A stretch of DNA of 30,018 bases from a virus (lineage: Duplodnaviria; Caudoviricetes). The translations under genes were made by a program, and so were the position numbers. The DNA lies in IMG/VR virus record IMGVR_UViG_3300023175_002562, positions 1-30,018 of that record. One strand, given 5' to 3'. Shown in pieces: positions 4,343 through 20,639 of this stretch. The notes below the pieces were generated by a model. It searched no databases and was not told the origin of the DNA. It worked only from the letters and a program-made list of their open reading frames with translations. How positions within the stretch are numbered: the first letter of the stretch is position 1; every line of letters starts with the position of its first letter.

Positions 4343-4371
4343 ATTTTACACAAAAAAAGAGGGTTCGTCAA
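4343..4371 (-). promoter_or_regulatory. sigma70-type promoter embedded in the terminator hairpin
   Basis: Minus strand reads TTGACG-N17-TAAAAT, with TG directly before the -10; the -35 lies in the hairpin loop. Confidence 0.7.
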
Positions 4372-4380
4372 GAACCCTCT
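4352..4380 (-). terminator. Rho-independent terminator
   Basis: Minus strand AGAGGGTTC-ttgac-GAACCCTCT (perfect 9-bp stem) followed by a T-run, directly after the 4386-4475 ORF. Confidence 0.85.
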
Positions 4381-4385
4381 GAATC

Positions 4386-4475
4386 TTATTTACTTAGCAA
4401 CTTGACCTCTGCATAGATTAGAAGAAAAAATGCGGCGGAAAAGGCAGTGAATGATCCTACCAGTGTTCCAATCAT
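4386..4475 (-). CDS. 29-aa hydrophobic (single TM-like) peptide
   Basis: MIGTLVGSFTAFSAAFFLLIYAEVKLLSK. It has an ATGA overlap with the upstream DUF4278-like stop and ends just before the terminator. Confidence 0.55.
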   Translation of the reverse strand: MIGTLVGSFTAFSAAFFLLIYAEVKLLSK

Positions 4476-4618
4476 TTTGTCTTCTCTCTGAAAAGGTTTT
4501 TCTCGAACTTGATTCCACGATAGATCTCGCTGAACCACTGCTCTTGTTGCAGTTGCTTCAGTGCCTCACGACGCTGTTCGGTGTCGTAAGATTGTCCACG
4601 GTAAACGACTTTAGACAT
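4472..4618 (-). CDS. DUF4278-like small protein (48 aa)
   Basis: MSKVVYRGQSYDTEQRREALKQLQQEQWFSEIYRGIKFEKNLFREKTK has two YRG motifs typical of DUF4278. It has a GGAG Shine-Dalgarno and lies directly downstream of the riboswitch-like motifs. Confidence 0.78.
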   Translation of the reverse strand: MSKVVYRGQSYDTEQRREALKQLQQEQWFSEIYRGIKFEKNLFREKTK

Positions 4619-4651
4619 AGTTCTACTCCAAAGAAATGAGATGGTTAATCC

Positions 4652-4693
4652 CGTTCCTTCGGGCGGCGTTTGCGTCCTCTATGAGGATGAACG
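4652..4693 (-). ncRNA. Glutamine riboswitch-like aptamer (glnA / Downstream-peptide class), distal copy
   Basis: Minus strand CGTTCA-TCCTC-ata-GAGGA-CGCAAACGCCGCCCGAA-GGAACG: P1 CGTTC/GAACG and P2 TCCTC/GAGGA. It lies upstream of a DUF4278-like ORF, the known context for these motifs. Confidence 0.75.
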
Positions 4694-4696
4694 ATC

Positions 4697-4917
4697 CGTT
4701 CCGCGTCGTCCTACTTGCGTCCTATTCTTCTACCTCAAAACATGAGGGATCTGTCCATTTAGAATAACTTTGAATAAAGTCTATTTTCTGTGGGAGAGAA
4801 AGAGACTTAGTATCCAACGTTCTTTCTACCAACCAATCAAACTGCTCACAAGTAAGAAGTAATGATGATTCTGGGGAGGACAGTGCCAGCAATAGAGGTA
4901 AAATCATAGGATGAACG
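4697..4917 (-). ncRNA. Glutamine riboswitch-like aptamer, proximal copy, with an ORF inserted in the P2 loop
   Basis: 5' half CGTTCA-TCCTAT (4917-4906) and 3' half ATAGGA-CGCAAGTAGGACGACGC-GGAACG (4725-4697). Same skeleton as the distal copy but with a loop of about 180 nt. Confidence 0.62.
4722..4907 (-). CDS. 61-aa hypothetical protein with hydrophobic N-terminus and two Cys, nested in the aptamer loop
   Basis: ORF track; ATG...TAG exactly spans the P2 loop. No Shine-Dalgarno, and the predicted leader is only about 11 nt. Confidence 0.55.
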   Translation of the reverse strand: MILPLLLALSSPESSLLLTCEQFDWLVERTLDTKSLSLPQKIDFIQSYSKWTDPSCFEVEE

Positions 4918-4924
4918 TAAGGGT

Positions 4925-4953
4925 ATTATACCCTCGATACTGTATATAGTCAA
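4925..4953 (-). promoter_or_regulatory. Near-consensus sigma70 promoter driving the riboswitch cassette
   Basis: Minus strand TTGACT-N17-TATAAT. The predicted start site (about 4918) falls immediately before the CGTTCA of the first aptamer. Confidence 0.85.
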
Positions 4954-7175: not shown

Positions 7176-7607
7176 TCAATAGGCTACACATCTAAAGGCA
7201 CGAACACGGTAAGTATTTGTTTTATTCACATAATTACTGGATCCATTTTGATAGTTAACTGACCAAGCAGTTGTGTCATTACATTCAGTTCTACTCCAAT
7301 AATTATGAGAAGAATAAGAATCCCAATGAGATTTGCATTCATATCCAGGATTCTCAAGTTCTAATTTTGTCGGAACAAACCAGTCACGACAGGCAGCATT
7401 TGACTCTGCAGATCTTACAGCATCATCTATATTATCCCAGGTTGTTGACACCTCAGTAGATGCTGGTGCAACAATCCAGGCAATACCACCATTACGACAT
7501 ACTAAATTTCCAGAACTCTCGATAGTGTCACCTAATGACGCCCTTTGAACTAGAGTACGTTCAAATCTTTGGTGTGCTTCAAATGTTCGTCCAAATATGA
7601 TTCCCAT
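7176..7607 (-). CDS. DUF1566/Lcl C-type-lectin-fold-like protein
   Basis: WFVPTKLEL, YWSRTE, AWSVNY and terminal VRAFR. Paralog of 19766-20191 and 20199-20639. Confidence 0.7.
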   Translation of the reverse strand: MGIIFGRTFEAHQRFERTLVQRASLGDTIESSGNLVCRNGGIAWIVAPASTEVSTTWDNIDDAVRSAESNAACRDWFVPTKLELENPGYECKSHWDSYSSHNYWSRTECNDTTAWSVNYQNGSSNYVNKTNTYRVRAFRCVAY

Positions 7608-7634: not shown

Positions 7635-8609
7635 CTATTTATAATTCATGTTCAAAGGAGATTTATTGGTTTTGCTTAATGGTCGTTCCTTTTTATTTTC
7701 CCCCTCAATATTAAATATAATTTCTTTGTATGCTTTTTCAATTTCATCCTGTGTAAATTCAATCCTTGGCTCATTTAACCTAGAGGATAAATGAGAATGA
7801 AATGCAGAAATTCTCATTGCTTCGGGATAGAATTTTTCGTCCCTCTCAATAATATGAAAATTATCATATGTGATATTGATAGGATGAGTTCCAGCAACAA
7901 CAACTGATGCCTTTTTATCAAAACATTTTCTGATATGCTGTCCGCAACTATCACATCCAATGAAATAATCAACGGCATCTATTATCGCACACCATTCTCT
8001 CAAATTTGGATCAGGATCTGGTTTGTATGTTTTTTTATTATGAAAATCTTTTGCTCCCATAAAAATTACATTATAATCTTTTGTTAGATTATCAATAAAA
8101 TAATCTAACATATTATTTGGAATAGATCTAAGACTATCATCAAACACTCCAGAGTCATGTGGTAACGCAGTAGATCCATATGGTTGAATTAAAATAGTTT
8201 TCTCCTTTTTGTGTTGCTCCTTTGCCTCTTGGATGATTTCAAATGCCTTTCTTTTTTCTGCCAAAGAAAGGCGAAGTTGCATTGGTGGTAGATCATCATG
8301 TTCAGACGCTTCATTAATACAGATATCAAATGCTTCTCTCAAAGAGATTTCATTTCTATAATATGCAGGAATGCGATAAGGTTCTGGAGAGATTACCTTA
8401 TCTGCCTTCCAGAATAGATCAAAAGATCCTTTTGAGTCTGGATTAAAAGTTCTCTCCTGAAGTTCAGAGAATCCCCAGGTAATGTAATCCCACCCAAGAA
8501 TCATAATATACCACTCTTCATCTGGATGATTCTTATGATATTTAAGTAGTGCTGGAAGAGCAGTAATAATTCTACCAAATCCACCATCAAGAGTTATAAT
8601 TGTAGTCAT
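7635..8609 (-). CDS. GT-B glycosyltransferase (GT9/heptosyltransferase-like)
   Basis: N-terminal DGGFG, ILIQPYGS and IDAVDYFIGCDSCGQH (GxDSxxxH, GT9-like). Confidence 0.65.
   Translation of the reverse strand: MTTIITLDGGFGRIITALPALLKYHKNHPDEEWYIMILGWDYITWGFSELQERTFNPDSKGSFDLFWKADKVISPEPYRIPAYYRNEISLREAFDICINEASEHDDLPPMQLRLSLAEKRKAFEIIQEAKEQHKKEKTILIQPYGSTALPHDSGVFDDSLRSIPNNMLDYFIDNLTKDYNVIFMGAKDFHNKKTYKPDPDPNLREWCAIIDAVDYFIGCDSCGQHIRKCFDKKASVVVAGTHPINITYDNFHIIERDEKFYPEAMRISAFHSHLSSRLNEPRIEFTQDEIEKAYKEIIFNIEGENKKERPLSKTNKSPLNMNYK
7636..7643 (-). promoter_or_regulatory. T4-type late promoter TATAAATA
   Basis: Exact TATAAATA overlapping the upstream stop, 28 nt before the ATG at 7607. Confidence 0.6.
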
Positions 8610-10312
8610 TATGAATAAGAAATTTTGTTTGAAGGTGTAATTGGCGAAATTATATAATTGTTTAATACCAAATAGTCAATGTCAAGATTGATAAATGCTT
8701 CAATAGCATCCTCTGGTGTTTCTACAATGGGTTTTCCATTGTCATTGAATGAGGTATTTAAAATCACAGGAACTTTAGAAACATCATTAAACTTTCTAAT
8801 CAGAGTTGTAACCTCTGGATATAATTCTTCATTGGCAGTTTGGATTCTACATGTATGATCTACATGTGTAATTGCTGCTATTTGATCTCGTTTATCTTCT
8901 TTAACTGTAAGAGAGTATAGCATATATGGGGAGCAAAAGTCTTCCTCAAAGTAATCGTTCAAGTGTTCTTCAAGAATAATTCCAGCAAAAGGTCTCCAGT
9001 TTTCTCTATGTTTTACTCTTAAATTCATAATGTCTTTATTGGATGCTGGTCCTGGGTGCATCAACAAAGAACGAGATCCTAATGCTCTCGGTCCAAACTC
9101 TGATCTACCTTGAAACCATCCAATAATTTTATTTTCACTAAGTTTCTGTGCCGTGAACTCACAAAGTTCCTCAAAATTATCATATTTTTTATACTTCAAT
9201 TTAAATTTTTTCAATTGAGTTTCTACTTCTTCATCAGAATATTTTTTTCCAAGAAGAGCTATGTTTTTTGGCAAAGAAACTTTTTGTTTTGATTTAAATA
9301 CTCCATAACATGCCGCACCAAAATGAAGACCAGAATCACTGGTGCAAGGGGGAATGTGAATATTGAATCCAAGACTTTTTATTCTACTATTTGCTAAAAC
9401 ATTTAGAAATGATCCTCCAGCAAGACATATATTATCTTCAAGATAATTTAGATCTCTAAGATCCGAAAAATATTCTACCATCGCATCTTCAAAATTTTTC
9501 TGAACAATATAAGCTCTTTCATCGGCACTAATCAAAGAGTAATGTTTATTCTGAAATACTATGTAAGGAAAATCTCCATATACTAGATCTTTTGATTTTT
9601 CATATTCCTTACAATCATCAAACTTTTCGGACTTTCCATAGGCAGAAAGTCCCATAATCTTACCATCCCAAGTCTCTCTATGCTCTTCATCATATTCTCC
9701 AATAGATTTTGAAGTCTTTTTACAATAAATTCGATGCGAATTATCGTGATAGTAAGCTCCAAAATTATTTGTTTCCCTTATGCCATTAAAAACCCTTAAA
9801 ATATTTTTTTCTTTATTAAAGTATCCTATTGTATTTGTTTCATAAGATAAAATTTCTTCATATCTACTACCATATATTATAGATCCTGCACCATCTATTG
9901 TAACAATACTTCCCTCATTAAAATCAGAAGAAAATACTGATGATGCGACATGAGAAAGGTGATGAGATACTACATGGAATTTTGCATTTGGAAAAAGTTT
10001 TTCTATTTTTTCTTTAATCTCACCATTATAAAATCTTCTATAAAAAATTTCAACACACATTGAAGGAATATAAATTTCATCTACATCTTCATACGAAATA
10101 TTTCCCTCTTCCAAACAGTATTCAATAGATTTTGTTGGGAAATTTCCTTCATATTTTTTATGTGTCAATCTTTCTTCAGAAATAGAAGAAACGTGTTCCC
10201 CATCAATGAAAAGAGTTGCTCCAGAATCATGTACCCAGGTATAATCTCCCTGATCATTTTTGGACTTGTTTGCTTCCCAGTCAAACGCACCATAAATTCC
10301 CATCACAATCAT
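8609..10312 (-). CDS. O-carbamoyltransferase (NodU/CmcH/TobZ family)
   Basis: HDSGA, SEER, HHLSH, DGAG, GKIMGLSAYG, LAGG, GRSEFGPRALGSRS, RPFA and LNTSFN. Confidence 0.93.
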   Translation of the reverse strand: MIVMGIYGAFDWEANKSKNDQGDYTWVHDSGATLFIDGEHVSSISEERLTHKKYEGNFPTKSIEYCLEEGNISYEDVDEIYIPSMCVEIFYRRFYNGEIKEKIEKLFPNAKFHVVSHHLSHVASSVFSSDFNEGSIVTIDGAGSIIYGSRYEEILSYETNTIGYFNKEKNILRVFNGIRETNNFGAYYHDNSHRIYCKKTSKSIGEYDEEHRETWDGKIMGLSAYGKSEKFDDCKEYEKSKDLVYGDFPYIVFQNKHYSLISADERAYIVQKNFEDAMVEYFSDLRDLNYLEDNICLAGGSFLNVLANSRIKSLGFNIHIPPCTSDSGLHFGAACYGVFKSKQKVSLPKNIALLGKKYSDEEVETQLKKFKLKYKKYDNFEELCEFTAQKLSENKIIGWFQGRSEFGPRALGSRSLLMHPGPASNKDIMNLRVKHRENWRPFAGIILEEHLNDYFEEDFCSPYMLYSLTVKEDKRDQIAAITHVDHTCRIQTANEELYPEVTTLIRKFNDVSKVPVILNTSFNDNGKPIVETPEDAIEAFINLDIDYLVLNNYIISPITPSNKISYS

Positions 10313-10348
10313 AAATTTTACCTCAAATTTTCATTTCAATGCTGATGT

Positions 10349-10618
10349 TTACTCATCAATCTCATCTAAAAATTTTGATGCTTCTCTTTCCATTTCATCC
10401 CAATTCATTTTATTAATCCCTTCGTATCCAACCTCCGCCAGAAGTTTTATATATCCTCTCGGAACAACCTCAAGTTTAAAGTAATCCTTTACACTTTCAT
10501 AATCCGGATGATCAGTTTGAATTCTTAAATCCATTACATGAAGAACTTTTTTCACATCTTCAAGAGTTTGGATTTTATCAACAGACAATTTATATCTTCT
10601 TGTTGGTTTTTCAGTCAT
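10349..10618 (-). CDS. Hypothetical protein
   Basis: ORF track; likely start MTEKPT at 10618, overlapping the upstream stop. Confidence 0.6.
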   Translation of the reverse strand: MTEKPTRRYKLSVDKIQTLEDVKKVLHVMDLRIQTDHPDYESVKDYFKLEVVPRGYIKLLAEVGYEGINKMNWDEMEREASKFLDEIDE

Positions 10619-11429
10619 AATTAACTTCAAATGAATTCATTTTAGAATATTTAGACCACCATTGCAAGTGGTTAATATGAGGATCTTTTTGCCTCTCAAA
10701 TTGAACATGAAGGGCGAGAGATGGTATGGGATTAACTCGCACTACATGATTCTCCCATATGTCACATATCGTATTTCCCTCATGAACCAGTTCATCTATT
10801 GGATCAACTCCATTCCAAGGTGTATACTTTGATGCTAGTTTTTCAAAAAGTTCCCAGTGATCTTGAAACACTTTTGGTGTTGTCATCATTGTAAATGTTG
10901 TCCATATTCCCTCCTTCCAATGTCTAACTGGAGTTCTAAACACCCTGCCAGGAAAGATATGTCCCAACTCATAATCCTCGGGATTGTCAAAAGGAAATAA
11001 GCAAAGTTCCTTATCCAAATTATAACATGATTTTAGATACTGATAAGAAGATAACATTTCTGATATTGCTTCCGTGCAGTGTAAGTAATCATCTTCTACG
11101 GAGTATATTAGATCGGCATTAGAATTTTTGCAGTATTCAAATTGCTTGAGTCCACTAAAACGAAATCCAGGAACTTCAAGATCTATAAGTTTATATGGAT
11201 GTTTGGAGTATGAAAAAATTTTCTGTATCTCATCAATACAATTTTTAGTGCAGTGGTCATTCAGAATAAGAAATGAAACTTCATGCTGCGAAATTACATT
11301 TGCAGAATTAACTAAGGAACTAACACATCCTAATAGTAAATTTTTTTTAGATAGATCAATATATCTTGCTTTGTCTTTACCATGAATGTTTTTTCCGTCA
11401 TGTATTCTTACAACAATTTCAAGTTTCAT
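10611..11429 (-). CDS. GT-A fold glycosyltransferase (GT2-like)
   Basis: ILNDHCT, IYSVEDDYLH (acidic metal-binding motif) and C-terminal PIPSLALH. Confidence 0.65.
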   Translation of the reverse strand: MKLEIVVRIHDGKNIHGKDKARYIDLSKKNLLLGCVSSLVNSANVISQHEVSFLILNDHCTKNCIDEIQKIFSYSKHPYKLIDLEVPGFRFSGLKQFEYCKNSNADLIYSVEDDYLHCTEAISEMLSSYQYLKSCYNLDKELCLFPFDNPEDYELGHIFPGRVFRTPVRHWKEGIWTTFTMMTTPKVFQDHWELFEKLASKYTPWNGVDPIDELVHEGNTICDIWENHVVRVNPIPSLALHVQFERQKDPHINHLQWWSKYSKMNSFEVNYD

Positions 11430-11437
11430 TTTTCAAT

Positions 11438-12082
11438 CTAATATGTTATCTCAAAAGATTTTTTTATCTCTATATTTACATTTCCTGCAATAGAAATACG
11501 ATAATCATCACTAGTATAAAATGGATATACTTGATGATTGAGACTAGAAGGAAACATTATCATTGTTCCTTCCCAAGATTTATCAACAGGGAGAGTCATG
11601 TTAGTAATTCTTCCAAAAATGTTTAGATAACTAAACGAAAACATGGAATTTAATTTAGTATTTGAATCCTTACAGTTTGAAAAATTTTGTTCTTCCTCAT
11701 GATCAAACGGCACTTGAATCCAAACAACATATGATAAGCTACATGAATGATCATGCATTGGATTAAACTCATATTTTTTCTGAAAGTTAATCCATTGATC
11801 TACAACTGCAAATCTTAATTTATCCACATCACCACCCTCTTCAGAAGAAAGATAAAACTTTTCAGATGAAGATTGTATATAAGGATTTAAAATTTCTTGA
11901 ATTATTTTTGGAGATTGATATTCTTTTTCAATATTACCAGCCAACTTGCTGTTCCATTTTTGAAAATCAGTTGAGTTTTCAAGAACTTTTTTCACTTCTA
12001 CTTTAATAGAATCAAGATCTTTTGATGATAGTTTAGTTTTTACGAAAATAGGTTCTTTGTGGTAATGTGTTACATGTTTCAT
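11438..12082 (-). CDS. 2OG-Fe(II) oxygenase-like protein (TIGR02466-like)
   Basis: WINFQKKYEFNPMHDH (HxH), LSYVVW, FPSSLNHQVYP (distal His) and YRISIAGN. Confidence 0.82.
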   Translation of the reverse strand: MKHVTHYHKEPIFVKTKLSSKDLDSIKVEVKKVLENSTDFQKWNSKLAGNIEKEYQSPKIIQEILNPYIQSSSEKFYLSSEEGGDVDKLRFAVVDQWINFQKKYEFNPMHDHSCSLSYVVWIQVPFDHEEEQNFSNCKDSNTKLNSMFSFSYLNIFGRITNMTLPVDKSWEGTMIMFPSSLNHQVYPFYTSDDYRISIAGNVNIEIKKSFEITY

Positions 12083-12086
12083 TTCA

Positions 12087-12884
12087 CTAATACTGAATTT
12101 GTAAGTTTTGTTGTTTCCTCCAAAATTCTAGTCCACTATATTTTTTAACTATCTCAGGCGGAAGAATGTTTCTTGGGGGATTGTACTCCACTTCATTTCT
12201 TACCGTATGCAATCCTTTCAAATTACATTTTTCATCAAATAGATCATTAGAATATCCCACTTCCTTAAAATTGTGAGGGAAGTAGGGTTTTTCTAAAAAT
12301 TCATATATCTGTCTCATTGTTTTTTCAGGTTCTCTACACAGATCCTCATACTCTATGATGTAAATCATTTCTGGATTAAAATAATATCCTTGATTTAACC
12401 ACATTAAAGACTTAGATACTGTTCCATCTGCAGGTTCCATTAACAGATCACACCGCTCAAAACAGGATTCAAGACTAGACTCCTCAACTATTGTATTGGG
12501 ATAAAAAGGATTTTTTGAAAAAATAATCTCAAATGAATTTAAGATAGAAACAATGTCCCTTACAGTACACAAAATTTTTGTATATGGAAAGAGTGATTTT
12601 AAAAAACTAGTTTTTTTAGTCCAAGTTCTTGAAGTGTCAAAGATAATTTGTTCCTTCCTATGCTTATAATATCCATCAAAAATTCCATATATTACATTCT
12701 TTCTTTGCTCTTCATTTACTAATAGATTAGACTCACTAGCACTGATTACCTCAAGGCACATTCCAGTTGCCGATTCTAATGGTGAAGATATATCGGCGTA
12801 AAAATTTGGATTTTGACTAAGAATACTTGAAAGCAATGTTGATCCGGATCTTGGAAGACCCGATATAAAATAATATGAATTCAT
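12087..12884 (-). CDS. PAPS-dependent sulfotransferase
   Basis: 5'-PSB loop ISGLPRSGSTLL, 3'-PB motif VRDIVSILNS and YEDL...PEKTM. Start reassigned to the ATG at 12884. Confidence 0.88.
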   Translation of the reverse strand: MNSYYFISGLPRSGSTLLSSILSQNPNFYADISSPLESATGMCLEVISASESNLLVNEEQRKNVIYGIFDGYYKHRKEQIIFDTSRTWTKKTSFLKSLFPYTKILCTVRDIVSILNSFEIIFSKNPFYPNTIVEESSLESCFERCDLLMEPADGTVSKSLMWLNQGYYFNPEMIYIIEYEDLCREPEKTMRQIYEFLEKPYFPHNFKEVGYSNDLFDEKCNLKGLHTVRNEVEYNPPRNILPPEIVKKYSGLEFWRKQQNLQIQY

Positions 12885-12885
12885 A

Positions 12886-13500
12886 TTATTTTTGTGGGTA
12901 TATGGTTCCTTTGGGAAGAGCAATTAAACTAAAAGATATTGAGATTGTTTCTTCATCATGATCATTTGGTTCCACGGATACGGGAAGATAAGACGGGTAT
13001 AACAAAACACTTCCCTCAACAGGAACAACACGAATAACTTCTGCCGTAAATTGATTCTTTTCTTTTGCAAGTTGGCGTCCATACCAAAGAGGATTCAACG
13101 ATGGATTGCGAATACAAAATTTACCACTTCCATGTGGAGCCTTTAAATAAAAAACACCAGTAAAAGTGTCTCCATGTACGTGTTCACTAATAATACATTG
13201 ACGACTATCATTCACATTCAACCAGGCAGACGTTAAGGCAATATCACATGGAACAAAATCAAGATCAGAAACTGCTTTGAATCCCATTTGGCAGAAATAT
13301 TCAAAAAGTTCTTTTAGTTCTGCAACTCCTTGAAGTGTATCTGGAGATTGATATCCATTAATGTTTGACCTGGGGGTTTCTTTTGTTGGATTATTTTCTT
13401 TGTATTCTTTTACTGCATTCAGAAATGATTCTTTATCATTTTCAAATTCCCAATAATCGCTCTGCCAGAAAGGAACAGAATAAATTGACGTAAGATCCAT
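12886..13500 (-). CDS. TIGR02466-like 2OG-Fe(II) oxygenase homolog with degenerate active site
   Basis: RSNINGYQS, AWLNVN, HVH and TGVFYL are present, but YPSYLPVSV and ETISISF lack the distal His and the Arg. Confidence 0.75.
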   Translation of the reverse strand: MDLTSIYSVPFWQSDYWEFENDKESFLNAVKEYKENNPTKETPRSNINGYQSPDTLQGVAELKELFEYFCQMGFKAVSDLDFVPCDIALTSAWLNVNDSRQCIISEHVHGDTFTGVFYLKAPHGSGKFCIRNPSLNPLWYGRQLAKEKNQFTAEVIRVVPVEGSVLLYPSYLPVSVEPNDHDEETISISFSLIALPKGTIYPQK

Positions 13501-13546
13501 AATTCAAGAATAATTTTAACTATTATAATTTATATGTGTTTAAAAA

Positions 13547-14752
13547 TCAAGTTTTTGTGTTCCCATAATAGATGACTTTGACCTTTTTATCTGTTTTAAA
13601 ATTTCTCCACATGTCAACAACGATACTGTCTTCGGGAATATCGCAATACAATTTATCCTCCTTAAAATATGTTGTAAAGGAACTATGTGCCAATAGAATT
13701 ACAGATGGTTCAAGAATTGTATCTTCTCCAACAAATGGATCAATATACTTTGGTTCAAATCCAAATTCTTCGCAATAGTTTCCAATCAAAATACTATAAC
13801 TTCCATCAATGTAAGGAACATCTGGTTTGTATGCTTTCCCATGAATTACAATTGGCATCCCATTCTGTTTAGCCAATTCAACTAGTTTTAAAGCAATGTT
13901 CTTTGCCTGAACCTCACGAGTATGCATGATTGAACCGAAAAAATCATATCCCAAATCAAGTTTTTGAGACAAGTATTTAAGTGCGATATTGTCTCTAGGA
14001 TGACAGGCACCCCCATCACCCATTCCCGCCTTCATATATTTGGAACTGATTATTCTATCTGTGGATTTGCAGAGAGCACCAGTAACTACATCTACATCAA
14101 TATTACCTTGCCTTTCTGCAACGTCTTGTATCATATTTACAAATGATAATTTGGTGCTGACTAAAGTGTTATAAAAAACTTTAATACATTCACATTCATC
14201 CCAATTTGATACAACTATGGGTGGATCGTTTTTGATTACACTTTTATATAATGAAATAAGAGTTTCCACTTCTCGATTGGATTCTCCACTTTCATTTCCC
14301 AGAATAATCAAATCTGGATTGATCATATCATGTTTGACTGATCCCATCGCAATAAAATATGGGTTGTAGACAAACCTAGGATTAGTAACATGTTGTACCA
14401 GATGTTCTCTTACTGTTCCTGGAAGAACTGTAGATATCAATACTAGAATCTGATTAGAATTCATGTATTGATTTGCCTCTTTGAGTACGTCCTGAACAAT
14501 AGAATAATCAAAGTCTTTTGGTGGAAGATCGGAAATGGGTTTTCTACCATCATATTTTGGGTCGTGTGGAGTTGGAATAGCAATGAAAACGATTTCCACA
14601 TCTTCAACTGCTTCTTTAATTGACGATTTAATGTCAATTAAATCTGTTTCTACATCTCGTATGTCATACCCTTTGACCAGATGCCCTTGTTCAGCAAATA
14701 CTTCTGAACAGGGAAGACCAAGTTTTCCAAGACCAATAAACGATAAATTCAT
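13547..14752 (-). CDS. UDP-glucose/GDP-mannose dehydrogenase family protein
   Basis: GLGKLG Rossmann motif, IAIPTP, STVLPGT, IKVFYN (catalytic Lys), GDGGACHPRD (catalytic Cys) and AYKP. Confidence 0.9.
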   Translation of the reverse strand: MNLSFIGLGKLGLPCSEVFAEQGHLVKGYDIRDVETDLIDIKSSIKEAVEDVEIVFIAIPTPHDPKYDGRKPISDLPPKDFDYSIVQDVLKEANQYMNSNQILVLISTVLPGTVREHLVQHVTNPRFVYNPYFIAMGSVKHDMINPDLIILGNESGESNREVETLISLYKSVIKNDPPIVVSNWDECECIKVFYNTLVSTKLSFVNMIQDVAERQGNIDVDVVTGALCKSTDRIISSKYMKAGMGDGGACHPRDNIALKYLSQKLDLGYDFFGSIMHTREVQAKNIALKLVELAKQNGMPIVIHGKAYKPDVPYIDGSYSILIGNYCEEFGFEPKYIDPFVGEDTILEPSVILLAHSSFTTYFKEDKLYCDIPEDSIVVDMWRNFKTDKKVKVIYYGNTKT

Positions 14753-15711
14753 TTTCTTTCCAGATCAAGTGTGACACAATGAAATCCTCCACCAAGAGTT
14801 CTTTGATGTCTCATGGGAAGCATGACACATTCAATGTTGTGCCTTTCCAATTCCTTTCTTAAGTTATGTTGATGTTCTTCAAGAACAACAAGGTTTTGAT
14901 TAATAGAAAACAAATTCATATTAATCCACTTAGAGGCATTATTATAACATGAATGGTATCCAATATCAACTGGTTCTGGACACCAAACAGCATCCCAATC
15001 ACAAAATGGTTTGGGAAGGATGTCTTTCGACTTTATCCTCTCAGGATTAAGAAGCATCAGACCATCTCTTAAAAATGCTACGGTGCTATCAATGTGCATG
15101 TAACTATAAACACCTTCAAGTGTATGAACCTTTACAGAACTTCCCAACAAATCTTGAAGTAATTGTGCTCCTTTTTTATTTCCACTGTTTGAAACAAGAT
15201 ACAGAACATCCCCATTAGCACGAATAATGTTTGCAGCATCAAATGCTGGTGAATGTTCTGTCAATGAAAGTACATCCTTATTGCCCAAGCATTCTAAATT
15301 ATAGAGTCTTTCATCATAAGAACAATCAACAGAAACCACATTATTTAAATGTTTGTCAAATGATTTCCATTCATTATGTCGTGCCCGAATAGGCATTGGC
15401 GTTGAAAGAGTTAGTTCACCGTGAATAAAAACACTATCTCTTGGACAATAGTTGTAATACTTTGGATTGTTTCTTTCTGGTCTAACTACCTCAACACCTT
15501 CAGATCTTAAGAAACTGACAAAGACCTCAAGATCCTCAGATGCTTCTTCTATTACTTGCTGAGGATAATTTCCTACAGAAATTTCTGACGTATCACTTAC
15601 GTCGGCATAGTTTATAGTCCTCATACTCAGTTCAAGCTCTGGAATTTTTGATTGTTCTACAACTCCAACAACAACTTTATTAAGTTGTGCCCATTCATTC
15701 TTAGAGTTCAT
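14749..15711 (-). CDS. Amidinotransferase (glycine / inosamine-phosphate amidinotransferase family)
   Basis: NEWAQL, CPRD, FDAAN (Asp), HIDST (His) and GGGFHCVT (Cys): an intact Asp-His-Cys triad. Confidence 0.9.
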   Translation of the reverse strand: MNSKNEWAQLNKVVVGVVEQSKIPELELSMRTINYADVSDTSEISVGNYPQQVIEEASEDLEVFVSFLRSEGVEVVRPERNNPKYYNYCPRDSVFIHGELTLSTPMPIRARHNEWKSFDKHLNNVVSVDCSYDERLYNLECLGNKDVLSLTEHSPAFDAANIIRANGDVLYLVSNSGNKKGAQLLQDLLGSSVKVHTLEGVYSYMHIDSTVAFLRDGLMLLNPERIKSKDILPKPFCDWDAVWCPEPVDIGYHSCYNNASKWINMNLFSINQNLVVLEEHQHNLRKELERHNIECVMLPMRHQRTLGGGFHCVTLDLERK

Positions 15712-15720
15712 TATAAAGAT

Positions 15721-16599
15721 CTAATTGTAAAAATGGTCAAATTTATTTCTATTTGATTTTTCATAAAAACTAACAGGAATTAATGGATCGTTTTTTTTAA
15801 ATTGTGCTGACAAAGTATCCGGATACTTTGGACACATTCCACATACAGGTTCTGCCTTTCTATTAAAAAATTCAACAATTTCATCGTCAGTGCATTTTGG
15901 AGTTAATGGAGTATATTTTAAATAAGGATTCCATTTTTCAGACAATAAATCACCATATTTTTCTTTTTGTAATTGTAAGTATGCAGTCATGCAGCATTTG
16001 TATATGTTGTCTTCGTACAATTGGAAACATTCATGACCAGAACGACAATACTTCCAAGCTTGTTCCGGGTCTTTATGGTCGAAAGGTTCAAAATTAATCC
16101 CAAATCCTTTATATGCAGTAGCCCAGTTATTATACATATCATTTACGTTTATTTCTATATCATAAGACTCCTTCCATTTATCCAATATTTTAAAAACTTT
16201 GGATAATTTATCTACATATTTTATATTTTTTGGGGTTGAATGTATTGATATTGATAAAGCACAATTTGTTTTTTCTAATGCTTCAGGCAAATCTTTATGA
16301 TTTTTTTCATTTAACAATAATCCATTTGTTACAAGTTCAAAACGAGAACCTTTTGGTTGTGTCCACATTTCCCGTGTTAGATAAATTATATCTACTAAGT
16401 TTTTGTGTAGTAAAGGTTCTCCTCCCAAAATTGCCATCAATTTTGGAGATACTCTATCACTCCACAAAGAGTACCAATTTTCCAATTCTTCAATATCAAC
16501 AAACCAATTATGTCCATGATTTGTAAAGTGCATACATCCCTGACATGTTAAATTACAATTATGAGTAATGTGCCACTCTAAATGAGGAATTTCTATCAT
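15721..16599 (-). CDS. Radical SAM protein with C-terminal Cys cluster
   Basis: CNLTCQGC (CxxxCxxC), GGEPLL, TNG and C-terminal C..C..CC..CGMC. Confidence 0.9.
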   Translation of the reverse strand: MIEIPHLEWHITHNCNLTCQGCMHFTNHGHNWFVDIEELENWYSLWSDRVSPKLMAILGGEPLLHKNLVDIIYLTREMWTQPKGSRFELVTNGLLLNEKNHKDLPEALEKTNCALSISIHSTPKNIKYVDKLSKVFKILDKWKESYDIEINVNDMYNNWATAYKGFGINFEPFDHKDPEQAWKYCRSGHECFQLYEDNIYKCCMTAYLQLQKEKYGDLLSEKWNPYLKYTPLTPKCTDDEIVEFFNRKAEPVCGMCPKYPDTLSAQFKKNDPLIPVSFYEKSNRNKFDHFYN

Positions 16600-16606
16600 T
16601 TGCTTT

Positions 16607-17440
16607 CTATGAATAAAAGGCGATTTTACTATTCTTTGAATCTTCCCATCTAACTTTTTTGGTCATTATAAAATCGTTTGATTTTCCAAAAGTAAAGAAA
16701 TCTTCTAGGTCAAATTTATGATGTTCATTTTTCCACCAATCATAATACAAATCTCTACATGGTCCATGCCAATCTCTTGACATTCCCTGATCATCATAAT
16801 CGCTACCAAGGTCGGGATTATTTGTAATCAATGGTATGGAATATGTGTTCCCACCACGAAGAATAAAAACATCCACCATTCCATAGATACTTTTCAATCT
16901 AACATCATTATACTTGATATTTAATTTAAACTTATTTCCAACACAGTGCATCTTAATAAGTTTTTTTGCATAATCACGATTTATTAAACATGGACCAAAT
17001 CCATGATTATAATGAGGTGGATGAAGAAAGAATGGAATTATCTCCCTATTTTCAAATCCCAACTGAATACAATCCCAATTTTCTGGAATATTATTCATCA
17101 AATAATCCCAGTCAAAATTCCAATATTCTATTAAAGATAAATCATAGTCATCTTCCATCATAACCATATATGGATCGTCAGTTGTTTCCAACCAATTTCC
17201 AATCATTTCTAAATGGGTGATTGAATTGGCAACAGCAGGAGATCCATATTTTACTTCTTCATCAAGAACTAAATGTTCCCATTTATCCTGTTCAGTCGAA
17301 AGATATTTTGATGAAGATACTCTATGATAATCTTTTATTCCCCATCTATCAAACTGAGACTCCATGTATTCTCTACGATCAACCCTATGATCCAGATTCA
17401 TATAATATACAGTTGGAAAATTTTTTAATTTATCCATCAA
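16607..17440 (-). CDS. Glycosyltransferase family 25-like
   Basis: YYMNLDHRVDRR, SITH, MEDD and WDCIQLG. Confidence 0.8.
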   Translation of the reverse strand: MMDKLKNFPTVYYMNLDHRVDRREYMESQFDRWGIKDYHRVSSSKYLSTEQDKWEHLVLDEEVKYGSPAVANSITHLEMIGNWLETTDDPYMVMMEDDYDLSLIEYWNFDWDYLMNNIPENWDCIQLGFENREIIPFFLHPPHYNHGFGPCLINRDYAKKLIKMHCVGNKFKLNIKYNDVRLKSIYGMVDVFILRGGNTYSIPLITNNPDLGSDYDDQGMSRDWHGPCRDLYYDWWKNEHHKFDLEDFFTFGKSNDFIMTKKVRWEDSKNSKIAFYS

Positions 17441-18639
17441 TATTCTATGCCCATTTTTTCATTCATATGTTTTTTTGATATACATTTCAATTCTGGTATT
17501 ACGTCAAAGAGTCTTTCTCCCCTTTTATCATCTTCAAAAAAATTATAATCTAAAAATTTTTTAGATTCATATGCATTATTTTTAACAGACATATTCAAAT
17601 CACTGATGACATGTGCAAATAATTTTGAAATGTCCACTCCATATTTCAAACGATATTCTTCAATGTAAGTTTCAAGTTGTTTTGATATTTCCAACCTATA
17701 TGATTTTGGAAGAACAGCAAGAACATTATGTAGAGATGTCTCTAGGGTTAATTCAAAATTACTATAGTTATATCGTTCAGAAATCCACCCAATTTCAATC
17801 AATCTATCTATAATTTTTGGCAACCTAAAGACATTGTAAGAAGAGACTACAATATTTGTATTAACATTAAATTTCTCCTTACTCAATGTAATTAAATTTT
17901 TTTGAACTGTTTTCCAAACTGTACCTTTGCGTATATATTCTGCTCTTTCATCAATCTCATCAATACTCGCAGTAACTTTTAATTTATCTGGATTGAACTT
18001 TCTCCAGTAATCTAAAACAGATTTCCCTTTATAGTTTAGGATTGACATATTGGTGTTATACCAAATATCAATGTCCGTCTTTCCTTCTGAAATAAGTCTA
18101 TCCAAAACATCATAATGTTCATCCATTAGTAATGTTTCCCCTCCAGCAAATTCCATAAATTGCAAATGATCAATGTGCTCATCTAAAAATTTTGGAATGT
18201 TGAGATCTTCGGAACAACTGACAACGACATTATTATTAATTGAACTACTAAACGTTGGACTACATATTCTACATTTAAAATTACACTTATTACTAATTCT
18301 AAAATCCCAAGCCTTTATTTTTACTTCTTTCACAGATCCATCTGGATTTGTTTCTTCTTCAACAGAGTCAAAACAACTACTTAAAACCTCATTGTATTTT
18401 TCTCTAAGACTTTTTTTCCCGTGCCCCTCTTCAAACCTACAAGCCCAACACACCTCTGGAAGAGATTCTTTTAACATTTCCAATCTCAATTTTTTCATAT
18501 TATCACTATTCCATATTTCATCAATACTTTGTTCCTTTATGTTACCAAGAAAAATTGGATTGGAACAACATGGAGACACAACTCCCGATGGGAGAAGTTC
18601 AAGATAAGTCCATGGTATAATACACTGTGGTTTTTTCAT
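17437..18639 (-). CDS. Radical SAM protein with N-terminal SPASM/twitch-like domain
   Basis: N-terminal CIIPW...PCC...GNI...IWNS...CWAC, then CNFKCRIC, AGGE, YNTN and YIRKG. Confidence 0.9.
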   Translation of the reverse strand: MKKPQCIIPWTYLELLPSGVVSPCCSNPIFLGNIKEQSIDEIWNSDNMKKLRLEMLKESLPEVCWACRFEEGHGKKSLREKYNEVLSSCFDSVEEETNPDGSVKEVKIKAWDFRISNKCNFKCRICSPTFSSSINNNVVVSCSEDLNIPKFLDEHIDHLQFMEFAGGETLLMDEHYDVLDRLISEGKTDIDIWYNTNMSILNYKGKSVLDYWRKFNPDKLKVTASIDEIDERAEYIRKGTVWKTVQKNLITLSKEKFNVNTNIVVSSYNVFRLPKIIDRLIEIGWISERYNYSNFELTLETSLHNVLAVLPKSYRLEISKQLETYIEEYRLKYGVDISKLFAHVISDLNMSVKNNAYESKKFLDYNFFEDDKRGERLFDVIPELKCISKKHMNEKMGIEY

Positions 18640-18644
18640 AAATT

Positions 18645-19232
18645 TTAATTAAATACGGACATTTTTTCTAGATTGGGATAGTTTTCATGAGTCCATTTTT
18701 TTGGTTCCTCATTAGAAACTTTTGAAATTTTTTCTAATCCAAGTTTTGCGATCTCGGGAGTCATGTAATAATGATATCCTAATGTATCTATATCTTGCTC
18801 CATCCAAGGAGTATTTGGAGATCTACCATCATATGACATTTTTTTCAGCATATCATAATCACCTTTGTTTTGCAATAAAATCATCCCACCCCTACCTAGA
18901 CTAAGGTGTTTTCTATACTGAAAACTTAGGCACATGAAAGTGTCTTTTATATATCCACCTTTCTTCCAATAGACTGCGGCATCTACAATATTAGTATTGC
19001 CAAGAAAGTAATAGTCTTTCCATTCTTGATATTGAAACTCCCAGTTCAAATTAAGTTTTTCTAGTGTGAAAGGAACTGAAATATAAGTATGAGTTGGTAT
19101 GGTTATATTATTAAAACCACCATGTCTCAGACAAAGTTCTATGGCATGAGTACAACAATCTGTGGCAACGGCATACGGAGATCCATAGAATTCTGCTATT
19201 TCTTTTTCAAATTTTTCAACAGTTTCAAACAT
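18645..19232 (-). CDS. Short DegT/DnrJ/EryC1/StrS aminotransferase-family protein
   Basis: FEKEIAEF, AVATDCCTHAI, DAA, SFQYRKHL (PLP Lys), GRGGMI and GYHYYM; only 195 aa. Confidence 0.82.
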   Translation of the reverse strand: MFETVEKFEKEIAEFYGSPYAVATDCCTHAIELCLRHGGFNNITIPTHTYISVPFTLEKLNLNWEFQYQEWKDYYFLGNTNIVDAAVYWKKGGYIKDTFMCLSFQYRKHLSLGRGGMILLQNKGDYDMLKKMSYDGRSPNTPWMEQDIDTLGYHYYMTPEIAKLGLEKISKVSNEEPKKWTHENYPNLEKMSVFN

Positions 19233-19731
19233 AAGTTCCAGTGATTTGCATTGTATATCTGTGCTCTTTTCCTATATTAGCTGCCATATGTGGTGTGTCG
19301 TTTTTCCATAAAATATAATCCCCACTTTTCCAATTGACTACTGGTGTTTCATCAATCTCAAAATAGTGTCCAGACTTCCAATCTTCTAGGAAGACAACTG
19401 CTCTTCCAACATCATCTGTTGGTTTAAGGTTCATTATTTCCTTATACCTTATAAAAGTATCCCCATGCTCTGGAAGTATTGTTCCTGGTGTCATACAATA
19501 TAAGGTTATTGTAGCATTTTTGAGAGGCACTTTTTTTGCCACATCAAAACACCATCCTGGGAGTTGATGAGATTGATCCCTCATCAATCCAGTATATTTT
19601 TCATAATTATGACCCAAATCTTTCCACCTCTCTAGGGTGTCTTGGTCATTGAAAGGTTTGTTTATATATTCTAGTTCTTTATAATCTAAAATTTGCTGTG
19701 AATTTATTTTCCCTCTGATAACCACAGACAA
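19225..19731 (-). CDS. 2OG-Fe(II)/AspH-like hydroxylase
   Basis: PGTILPEHGD (HxD), distal PHMAAN and RYTMQITG; TTG start. Confidence 0.72.
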   Translation of the reverse strand: MSVVIRGKINSQQILDYKELEYINKPFNDQDTLERWKDLGHNYEKYTGLMRDQSHQLPGWCFDVAKKVPLKNATITLYCMTPGTILPEHGDTFIRYKEIMNLKPTDDVGRAVVFLEDWKSGHYFEIDETPVVNWKSGDYILWKNDTPHMAANIGKEHRYTMQITGTYV

Positions 19732-19765: not shown

Positions 19766-20191
19766 TTAATAAGTTATACACCTAAAAGCACGGTGTTTAA
19801 ATGTATCTGTAGAATAACAACTTCCATTACATCCTGATACCAAATTAAGAAATTGTGGACCTGTGGCAGGGTTATTGAAACTAAAAGCACCACAACAATT
19901 GGTGGACCACCAGATGCCAGAGCAGTCAGGTATGTTCGTTCTATGACAGCGTATCGGATCACATAATTGATCAAGAGTAGGAAGAAACCAATCCCCACAA
20001 GGAGCATTTGCTTCAGCACACGTAATTGCCGAAGTATTACTCCATCCTGCATTAACTGCCGTAGAATCTGGTGCTACTATAATTGCATTACCTTTTCCAT
20101 CACGACACATCAAATTTCCACCAAACATTTCTGTGCCTAATGGTTTTCCAGCAATAAAATGCCAACAAGTTTGTCCTATGATGAATGCCAT
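19766..20191 (-). CDS. Cys-rich DUF1566/C-type-lectin-like protein
   Basis: IVAP, CGDWFLPTLDQL, WWST and RAFRCITY; 12 Cys in 141 aa. Confidence 0.65.
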   Translation of the reverse strand: MAFIIGQTCWHFIAGKPLGTEMFGGNLMCRDGKGNAIIVAPDSTAVNAGWSNTSAITCAEANAPCGDWFLPTLDQLCDPIRCHRTNIPDCSGIWWSTNCCGAFSFNNPATGPQFLNLVSGCNGSCYSTDTFKHRAFRCITY

Positions 20192-20198
20192 TTTTATA

Positions 20199-20639
20199 TT
20201 AGTAAGTTACACATCTAAATGCACGGGTGAGATATGTATCTGTACCATAACAACTTCCATTAAATCCAGTGCTCATTAACACATATTGCGGACCAGTATT
20301 GGCATTGTCGAAACTAAAACCACCACAACAAGTAGAGGACCAATACCTTCCAGTAGGGGCAGTACCACCATCCCATCCCGATTTATTTTCATATCCAGGA
20401 TTCAACAGATCAGTTAGATTTGGAATAAACCAATCCCCACAAGGAATCGCAGTTTCTGCATTAGTTACTGCTGTTTGACCACCCCATGATGTTGTTGCTT
20501 CCGTAGAGGAAGGTGCAACAATAAATGCCACTCCTCCGCCGTTCGTACCTATAAAATGTCCTCCCTCAATACAACAACCAGGTTGTCTAAATGCGGAAGA
20601 AAAAAATTGTCCTTTAGATTGTCCAGCAGTTATTCCCAT
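20199..20639 (-). CDS. Cys-rich DUF1566/C-type-lectin-like protein
   Basis: IVAP, CGDWFIPNLTDL, YWSS and RAFRCVTY; 7 Cys. Tandem paralog of 19766-20191. Confidence 0.65.
   Translation of the reverse strand: MGITAGQSKGQFFSSAFRQPGCCIEGGHFIGTNGGGVAFIVAPSSTEATTSWGGQTAVTNAETAIPCGDWFIPNLTDLLNPGYENKSGWDGGTAPTGRYWSSTCCGGFSFDNANTGPQYVLMSTGFNGSCYGTDTYLTRAFRCVTY

Follow-up and report, generated by a model that had tools for sequence, protein, structure and literature searches.

Riboswitch aptamers are generally taken to be compact elements that lie upstream of the gene they control. Other structured RNAs hold reading frames within their folds: homing-endonuclease ORFs occupy peripheral loops of group I introns, often overlapping core helices, and the tag ORF lies inside tmRNA. 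Tandem glnA RNAs were reportedly studied by Ames and Breaker in 2011. For the gifB leader, the sections of the published account consulted here show glutamine binding and induction and propose the release of a masked site (PMC6212724). Tandem glnA RNAs have already been noted (PMC2864571, PMC10265488), as have glnA annotations in cyanophages (PMC9964418, PMC9004378), and the 2010 glnA alignment, as far as excerpted, contains wide gap blocks in both loops (PMC2864571). The passages returned by full-text literature searches held no account of a nested gene or of strand exchange, and an earlier mention around tandem glnA RNAs is possible. Here, we describe a variant of the glutamine riboswitch that is real, conserved and, apparently, so far undescribed.

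The stretch of DNA analysed (the window) is a 30-kb linear virus record of 30,018 nucleotides whose source is a T4-like cyanophage. The genes neighbouring the leader match thymidylate synthase, PhoH, a T4 late-promoter regulator and a helicase loader, and the leader itself was matched in 356 phage records, mostly of phages that infect Synechococcus or Prochlorococcus, along with a few marine viruses. It belongs to a minus-strand unit that runs from a sigma-70-type promoter to a terminator-like hairpin (4953-4925 to 4380-4358):

4925..4953, minus strand: sigma-70-type promoter (TTGACT, 17 nt, TATAAT; 11 of 12 consensus matches)
4920..4934, minus strand: inverted repeat centred on the -10 box, seen in the sequence
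about 4918-4917, minus strand: predicted transcription start, the first base of P1
4628..4662, minus strand: alternative SD-masking hairpin, in which the aptamer 3' strand pairs with a pyrimidine tract and with the two leading G residues of the SD (predicted OFF state in the absence of ligand)
4472..4629, minus strand: SD (GGAG, 4629-4626) and 48-aa DUF4278-like (IF17-like) gene (4618-4472)
4386..4475, minus strand: 29-codon hydrophobic ORF overlapping the preceding stop (ATGA), from the sequence and ORF list
4358..4380, minus strand: intrinsic-terminator-like hairpin with T run that closes the unit, from the sequence

Among 239 distinct upstream regions, 214 possess a -35-like hexamer, and the -10 box, where found, mostly ends 7-8 nt ahead of C1 (4917). 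A stem of at least 5 bp surrounds the -10 box in 85% of these regions and in 14% of shuffles, with arms that vary between loci and phages; this repeat is possibly an operator, or the 5' hairpin of a longer transcript. A TAAATA, TATATA or TACATA box occurs in 127, 86 and 20 of the 239 regions, respectively, and in the window (4950-4944) directly follows the -35 hexamer. Because this box resembles T4-type late promoters, the unit may have early and late starts. The 29-codon ORF is probably on the same transcript as the DUF4278-like gene. Positions 4397-4933 are covered by metatranscriptome contigs from four runs; in the three of these compared over 18 kb, near-identical pieces elsewhere are few. 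Since the runs were chosen with this stretch and contigs carry neither strand nor level, this coverage was not counted as evidence. Elsewhere in the window, a long accessory block (7635-19731) contains, by eye, carbamoyltransferase-, sulfotransferase- and 2OG-Fe(II) oxygenase-like genes as well as genes resembling a nucleotide-sugar dehydrogenase, an amidinotransferase, radical SAM enzymes and an aminotransferase. Three related cysteine-rich ORFs (7176-7607, 19766-20191 and 20199-20639) have a common terminal 'RAFRC' motif.

The leader consists of two units, which a preliminary description of this DNA took to be adjacent aptamers of one skeleton, the second serving as an internal control. The parts of the fold that we propose instead are as follows, with the G22/C23 numbering carried over by inference from the sections consulted of PMC6698751:

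4913..4917, minus strand: P1a, the 5' strand of the outer P1 (C1 = 4917, G2 = 4916), pairing with 4656-4652
4712..4719, minus strand: outer-core junction strand with G22 (4718), C23 (4717) and the AGUA half of the E-loop, placed by the Rfam alignment of empty alleles
4704..4711, minus strand: P3 5' strand, pairing across units with 4668-4661 (6 pairs, 2 A-C)
4689..4701, minus strand: inner, circularly permuted P1 hairpin (GAACG 4701-4697, 3-nt loop, CGTTC 4693-4689)
4675..4687, minus strand: predicted inner-core P2, the second gene slot, empty here (5 bp, 3-nt loop)
4651..4674, minus strand: inner junction strand with the P3 3' strand (4668-4661) and the GAA half of the E-loop, including P1d (4656-4652) and G60 (4651)

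Three lines of evidence lead to an interlocked reading, namely the distribution of the E-loop halves, cross-unit pairing of P3 and cross-unit compensation of P1. The E-loop is divided, its AGUA half being confined to unit 1 and its GAA half to unit 2, and in empty alleles, whose P2 loops hold no gene, the match to the Rfam glutamine-I model bridges both units, starting with the 5' half of the first and finishing at the 3' end of the second. The P3 segments are complementary across units (123 of 145 cells paired over 20 equal-length variants), and native P3 partners beat swapped ones in 24 of 29 cases. A scan for loci in which the 3' P1 strand of unit 1 is altered gave 120 matches, of which 106 were set aside, the other aptamer parts being absent, and 14 were real leaders. 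All 14 carry a compensating change in the 5' strand of unit 2 (13 of one kind, which may derive from few events, and 1 of another), and the same change occurs within the window's own clade (L005-L007). The outer P1 changed independently in two loci, and P1a changes together with P1d in L163/L401 and in L461. Accordingly, on comparative sequence grounds, the outer glutamine-I junction is read as carrying an inner circularly permuted core in its P3 loop, a structure that we hold with high confidence.

Were the units instead to act as separate aptamers in tandem, with P1 and P3 both formed within a unit, the P1 strands would fit in the 334 of 361 loci where they are identical, so that either pairing is possible there, and the predicted energy would be equal to that of the interlocked form (-76.1 and -76.2, respectively, which gives no discrimination). 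Every informative variant, however, loses the within-unit P1 and retains the cross-unit P1, and each independent aptamer would possess merely half of an E-loop. The 14 of 14 cross-unit P1 changes, together with the P3 covariation, led us to reject independent units, which we regard as extremely unlikely. Thus, the second unit (4693-4652) does have the 3-nt P2 loop reported for it, but with P1 swapped and P3 shared it is neither an independent tandem aptamer nor an internal control. Likewise, CGTTC at 4917-4913 is complementary to GAACG at 4701-4697, as had been noted, but has a second, equally good partner in GAACG at 4656-4652; covariation chooses the latter, and the former is probably not the functional P1 pairing. 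Both the interlocked and the independent folds lie 14 kcal/mol above the SD-masked form, so ligand and tertiary contacts must close this gap.

The interlocked outer core, formed across both units, is a three-way junction with P2, P3 and an E-loop, and the glutamine-aptamer skeleton first recognized by inspection is supported. The second unit is the only Rfam gathering-level match in the window (RF01739, 35.5 bits against 35), and the filled outer core gave no Rfam match even at E 10. Natural empty alleles stood in for the window with its loop deleted; across both of their units, RF01739 scored 43.6 bits in L174, 40.9 in L246, 37.6 in L208 and 35.1 in L220, and stayed below gathering (35) in L175 (33.3) and in L221, the closest allele (30.8). 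RF01704 (cut-off 33) scored 21.6 in the window, 29.9 in L221 and 32.8 in the highest-scoring of 16 related loci. For every ligand contact named in the consulted sections of PMC6698751, both cores have the matching base: C1-G59, G2-C58 and G22 of the outer core lie at 4917/4652, 4916/4653 and 4718, and their inner-core counterparts at 4693/4697, 4692/4698 and 4673, bases that formed part of the search patterns in other loci. G60, which the patterns did not fix, occurs in 302 of 303 filled units, and the long-range pair 23/60 is present as C-G rather than G-C. The inner core has no E-loop and may not bind glutamine. A leader that keeps the skeleton while sensing another ligand or a protein, or that sets only mRNA stability, would agree with scores near or under the Rfam cut-offs and with a type-II C-G polarity within a type-I junction. 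It accords poorly with the presence of all named contact bases and with a downstream gene from a family controlled by validated glutamine switches, and we consider it very unlikely; the leader is likely, as judged from its sequence, to bind glutamine.

The P2 loop of the outer core contains an entire gene, the start and stop codons of which contribute to the helix that closes the loop:

4722..4907, minus strand: nested ORF, 61 codons and TAG, from the ORF list, filling the P2 loop
4906..4911, minus strand: P2 5' strand, containing the first two bases of the nested AUG (third pair conserved in all 81 distinct units of this class)
4720..4725, minus strand: P2 3' strand, containing the TAG stop (4724-4722), supported by covariation
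4895..4903, minus strand: P2 extension, 5' arm, codons 2-5 of the nested ORF (pairing probability about 1)
4728..4736, minus strand: P2 extension, 3' arm, last codons of the nested ORF, from the pairing prediction and recoding test

The ORF lies at 4907-4722, inside the P2 loop as originally claimed, and TCCTAT (4911-4906), spanning the AT of the ATG, is indeed perfectly complementary to ATAGGA (4725-4720), in which the TAG stop lies. An additional 9-bp helix within the coding sequence joins 4903-4895 to 4736-4728. Close relatives of the ORF are encoded in 34 viral loci; in every one the aptamer 5' half stands directly ahead of the ATG, and in all 30 that reach past the stop the 3' half directly follows it, the other 4 being truncated by contig ends. 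Across related loci the start/stop pairing is both conserved and compensated, the covariation that the preliminary description had proposed as a check. The first two P2 pairs were fixed by the search patterns and are hence uninformative. Among 81 distinct units of the window's class, the third pair is kept in every one (C-G in 54, U-A in 21, U-G in 6), against a mean of 67 in shuffle controls that are inflated by related sequences; the fourth is kept in only 56, the A of the AUG is paired with the U of the stop in 73, and past the sixth pair the register is not conserved. The bases ahead of the AUG track the stop codon, CU going with UAG, UU with UAA and UC with UGA. On a tree of 73 proteins, built from few columns and with rough support, UAA occurs with UU in 13 of 13 cases and UGA with UC in 7 of 7, and the well-supported branches force at least five gains or losses of the former combination and at least two of the latter. 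Chance complementarity of start and stop was excluded by this conservation and repeated compensation. The two ends of the coding sequence also form stronger pairing than in randomly recoded synonymous versions in 24 of the 26 representatives of the window's class (mean z -1.8), whereas no such preference was seen for the commonest second-slot class (mean z -0.2). In the window, ligand-free folding gives the start/stop helix and its extension predicted probabilities of 0.89-1.0.

The expectation that the nested ORF would show coding conservation was confirmed, with a dN/dS of ~0.15 in the window's cluster and invariant cysteines. Median values are 0.24, 0.18 and 0.15 in three large clusters, and 165 of 165 pairs in the window's cluster fall below 1, the pairs being non-independent in each case. 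The 296 distinct nested proteins all fall into a single BLAST-connected family, and every one contains exactly two cysteines, mostly spaced 34-37 residues apart; C20 and C56 are invariant in 110 aligned members. A spurious ORF is ruled out by dN/dS, the invariant cysteines and membership in a single family, and we are nearly certain that the nested ORF is a real gene. The family matches PHROG 504, 6471 and 13397, all of unknown function, and the window's ORF belongs to PHROG 13397, which is related to the other two. Its 61-aa product has a hydrophobic N-terminus followed by a predicted helical hairpin between C20 and C56, and AlphaFold2 gave a two-helix hairpin (pLDDT 86) with the N-terminus at low confidence. 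The protein is probably disulfide-stapled and exported or membrane-bound. A lipoprotein signal, considered by eye, was dropped, as 290 of the 296 proteins lack K and R among their first six residues. A Pfam search with the 110 family members identified no family, and tblastn of the window's ORF against phage isolates returned a single weak unrelated match. Sequence searches of the PDB gave weak helical matches only (best E 0.004), fold searches led either to cyanophage proteins that are themselves uncharacterised (best E 0.003) or to generic hairpins (best Z 4.1), neither pointing to a function, and ESM Atlas matches were all below 0.8. Four giant repeat proteins among 413 profile matches were rejected, matching only through summed weak repeats. 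Two very long repeat proteins (P0019 and P0034), presumably mesothelin-like, have units in which a hydrophobic stretch is combined with a cysteine and two helices, as in the nested family; these too matched only through summed weak repeats. In the portion of the PMC3037559 table consulted, the second-slot family (T4-GC 430) is without a virion-proteome mark.

The suggestion that the P2 loop is a slot holds in that filled and empty alleles both exist. A scan with the first 3' half alone, which is blind to loop content, led to an estimate of about 3,600 matching stored viral stretches. At least one ORF-filled P2 loop was found in 82 of 120 sampled viral loci, a lower bound because the parser missed sequence variants; two loops are filled in 24, and the parser found none filled in 38. 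Inserts are shorter than 50 nt in 117 units and 130-239 nt with an ORF in 106, where the ORF starts in the P2 5' strand or just past it; two other inserts resemble chance matches. Nested stops lie in three places, the P2 3' strand (the window's class), the AGUA strand and the GAA strand of the last unit. The natural empty allele L221 matches the window identically from C1 to the SD outside both P2 arms. The second-slot family is encoded by 309 isolate records; in Syn9, family members are the adjacent gp196 and gp197, ahead of a similar small gene. The second loop is filled in S-SM1 and S-RIM2, and both loops are empty in S-PM2, in which no nested-family member was found, and in S-CAM7, which has a free-standing member (L593:1500-1680, about 184216-184392), clear of aptamer halves and far from the empty leader of that phage; the S-CAM7 record annotates no gene where this match starts. 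Together with the 38 loci without a filled loop, this free-standing member indicates that the leader and the gene can each occur alone. Among L178, L267, L365 and L368, closely related versions of one protein occupy the first loop in one phage and the second in another, and some phages have stop-in-P2 genes in both loops. From such sequences, the nested gene seems to move or duplicate between slots.

Several loci depart from this layout. A 201-aa homing-endonuclease-like ORF (L023:1717-2322, also in L024; PHROG 314, E 1e-6) lies in the short inner-P1 loop, reads through unit 2 and stops just past the aptamer. About 100 extra bases occur at the same loop in L142, and L272 has a three-unit leader with a gene in the middle unit. 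In cellular genomes, a pattern that demanded the phage-type junction gave 71 matches and 11 real leaders, 9 of which have flanks matching viral loci, the other two being L529 and L561. In L565, L535 and L587, the leader is found with phage-like flanks on 188-194 kb contigs of bacterial assemblies, one a Nonlabens isolate; these contigs are probably whole cyanophage genomes within those assemblies.

The loop might be a passenger slot, in which a gene exploits a strong promoter and a tolerant loop and the pairing saves the riboswitch with no regulatory coupling. The coexistence of filled and empty alleles with identical cores fits this explanation, as do a gene found in either loop or both with three stop positions, a third loop filled by the endonuclease-like ORF and the free-standing S-CAM7 member. 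Against it, a single protein family accounts for all 296 cases, synonymous sites in the window's class favour start-end pairing beyond the aptamer core, and finishing the nested ORF requires the ribosome to open P2. We regard the passenger explanation as unlikely. Functional coupling between the nested gene and the switch is moderately favoured.

The DUF4278-like gene downstream of the aptamer matches Pfam PF14105 (E 7.8e-4; 20.2 bits, under the 25.3 cut-off) and PHROG 5049. The SD-masking hairpin is its predicted ground state in the window (probability about 1); among 175 distinct platforms folded as short segments, 167 have the first G of the SD paired, and at one SD-masking pair A faces U in 29 of 30. 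By analogy with gifB and crystal structures, the 3' strand (4662-4648) would pair without glutamine with the tract ahead of the SD, keeping the gene off, and glutamine would lock that strand into the outer P1, freeing the SD. From this analogy, it appears quite probable that glutamine switches the DUF4278-like gene from OFF to ON.

The AUG of the nested gene is separated from the predicted 5' end by about 11 nt, and no SD stands ahead of first-slot genes (0 of 138 units), the mode of initiation being assumed. In folded prefixes of the RNA the AUG stays partly accessible as long as the stop-codon strand is missing; once that strand is present the AUG is closed without ligand, and this ligand-free closure favours a short translation window and competition. 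The AUG would be most open during RNA synthesis, and some 15 bp would clamp it, largely without ligand, once its own stop codon had been transcribed. A ribosome at the nested stop would unwind P2 and cover the junction strand, so that the outer core would be undone and the OFF hairpin favoured. The nested gene might then give a short burst of a small disulfide-stapled protein, delaying or damping the glutamine response. On balance we favour, somewhat above even chances, an interlocked glutamine-sensing leader in which translation of the nested gene competes with the fold.

In the preliminary description, glutamine binding was instead envisaged to close the nested gene while opening the downstream gene. 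The position of the AUG in P2, 6 nt from the outer P1 strand that pairs only in the bound fold, is compatible with such opposite switching, and relatives with a gene in the second slot support it further: an SD-like GGAG occurs in the inner P1 loop of 111 of 162 filled second-slot units and in 0 of 55 empty ones. In the window, however, the outer P1 is impossible until about 265 nt have been transcribed, and the helix covering the AUG should, by prediction, already exist in the ligand-free RNA, so that glutamine may add little to hiding this start codon. Opposite switching is therefore doubtful here; given the GGAG confined to filled units, ligand-dependent repression fits the second-slot relatives better than the window's upstream slot.

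A broader reading, to which we would give slightly less than even chances, is that of a two-site sensor acting as a cassette holder, each P2 loop carrying a small secreted-type gene, with translation of that gene and folding of the sensor gating one another. If so, one mRNA would set up to three proteins by host nitrogen status and time after transcription, and the expression platform of the riboswitch would extend to an entire gene within its aptamer. The nested-gene layout is common in T4-like cyanophages, and covariance-model scans miss an aptamer split by a 190-nt gene. If the switch works, a lytic phage would have a direct route to read host nitrogen status and to control an IF17-like protein that may inhibit host glutamine synthetase. 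Cooperative glutamine sensing would find a structural basis in the strand-swapped double core.

Compared with group I intron ORFs and the tmRNA tag, the leader is alike in that a reading frame is looped out of a structured RNA, but here the RNA around the frame is a putative metabolite sensor within the same mRNA, and the frame encodes a small, non-mobile two-cysteine protein, with its start and stop forming the closing helix. With the glutamine-I class (RF01739), as represented by the consulted sections on the Synechocystis gifB/IF17 leader (PMC6212724), it shares the P1-P2-P3 junction, the E-loop, the contact bases, a site ahead of a DUF4278-type gene and a predicted ON response through unmasking of the ribosome-binding site. 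It differs from that class in having two interlocked cores with swapped P1 strands, one shared P3 and a circularly permuted inner core, a whole gene in P2 and a long-range C-G rather than G-C pair, and in being phage-encoded. The glutamine-II Downstream-peptide class (RF01704), in the portions of PMC6698751 consulted, has the same binding-pocket bases and the same C-G long-range polarity, and its model gives weak matches; the leader, by contrast, needs no pseudoknot helix of that class, scores under the cut-off and carries its small ORF inside the aptamer rather than downstream of it. Finally, the tandem and cyanophage glnA reports resemble this locus in double arrangement and phage occurrence, but in the sections consulted treat repeated units or plain annotations, whereas the cyanophage leader described here combines strand exchange with a nested gene.
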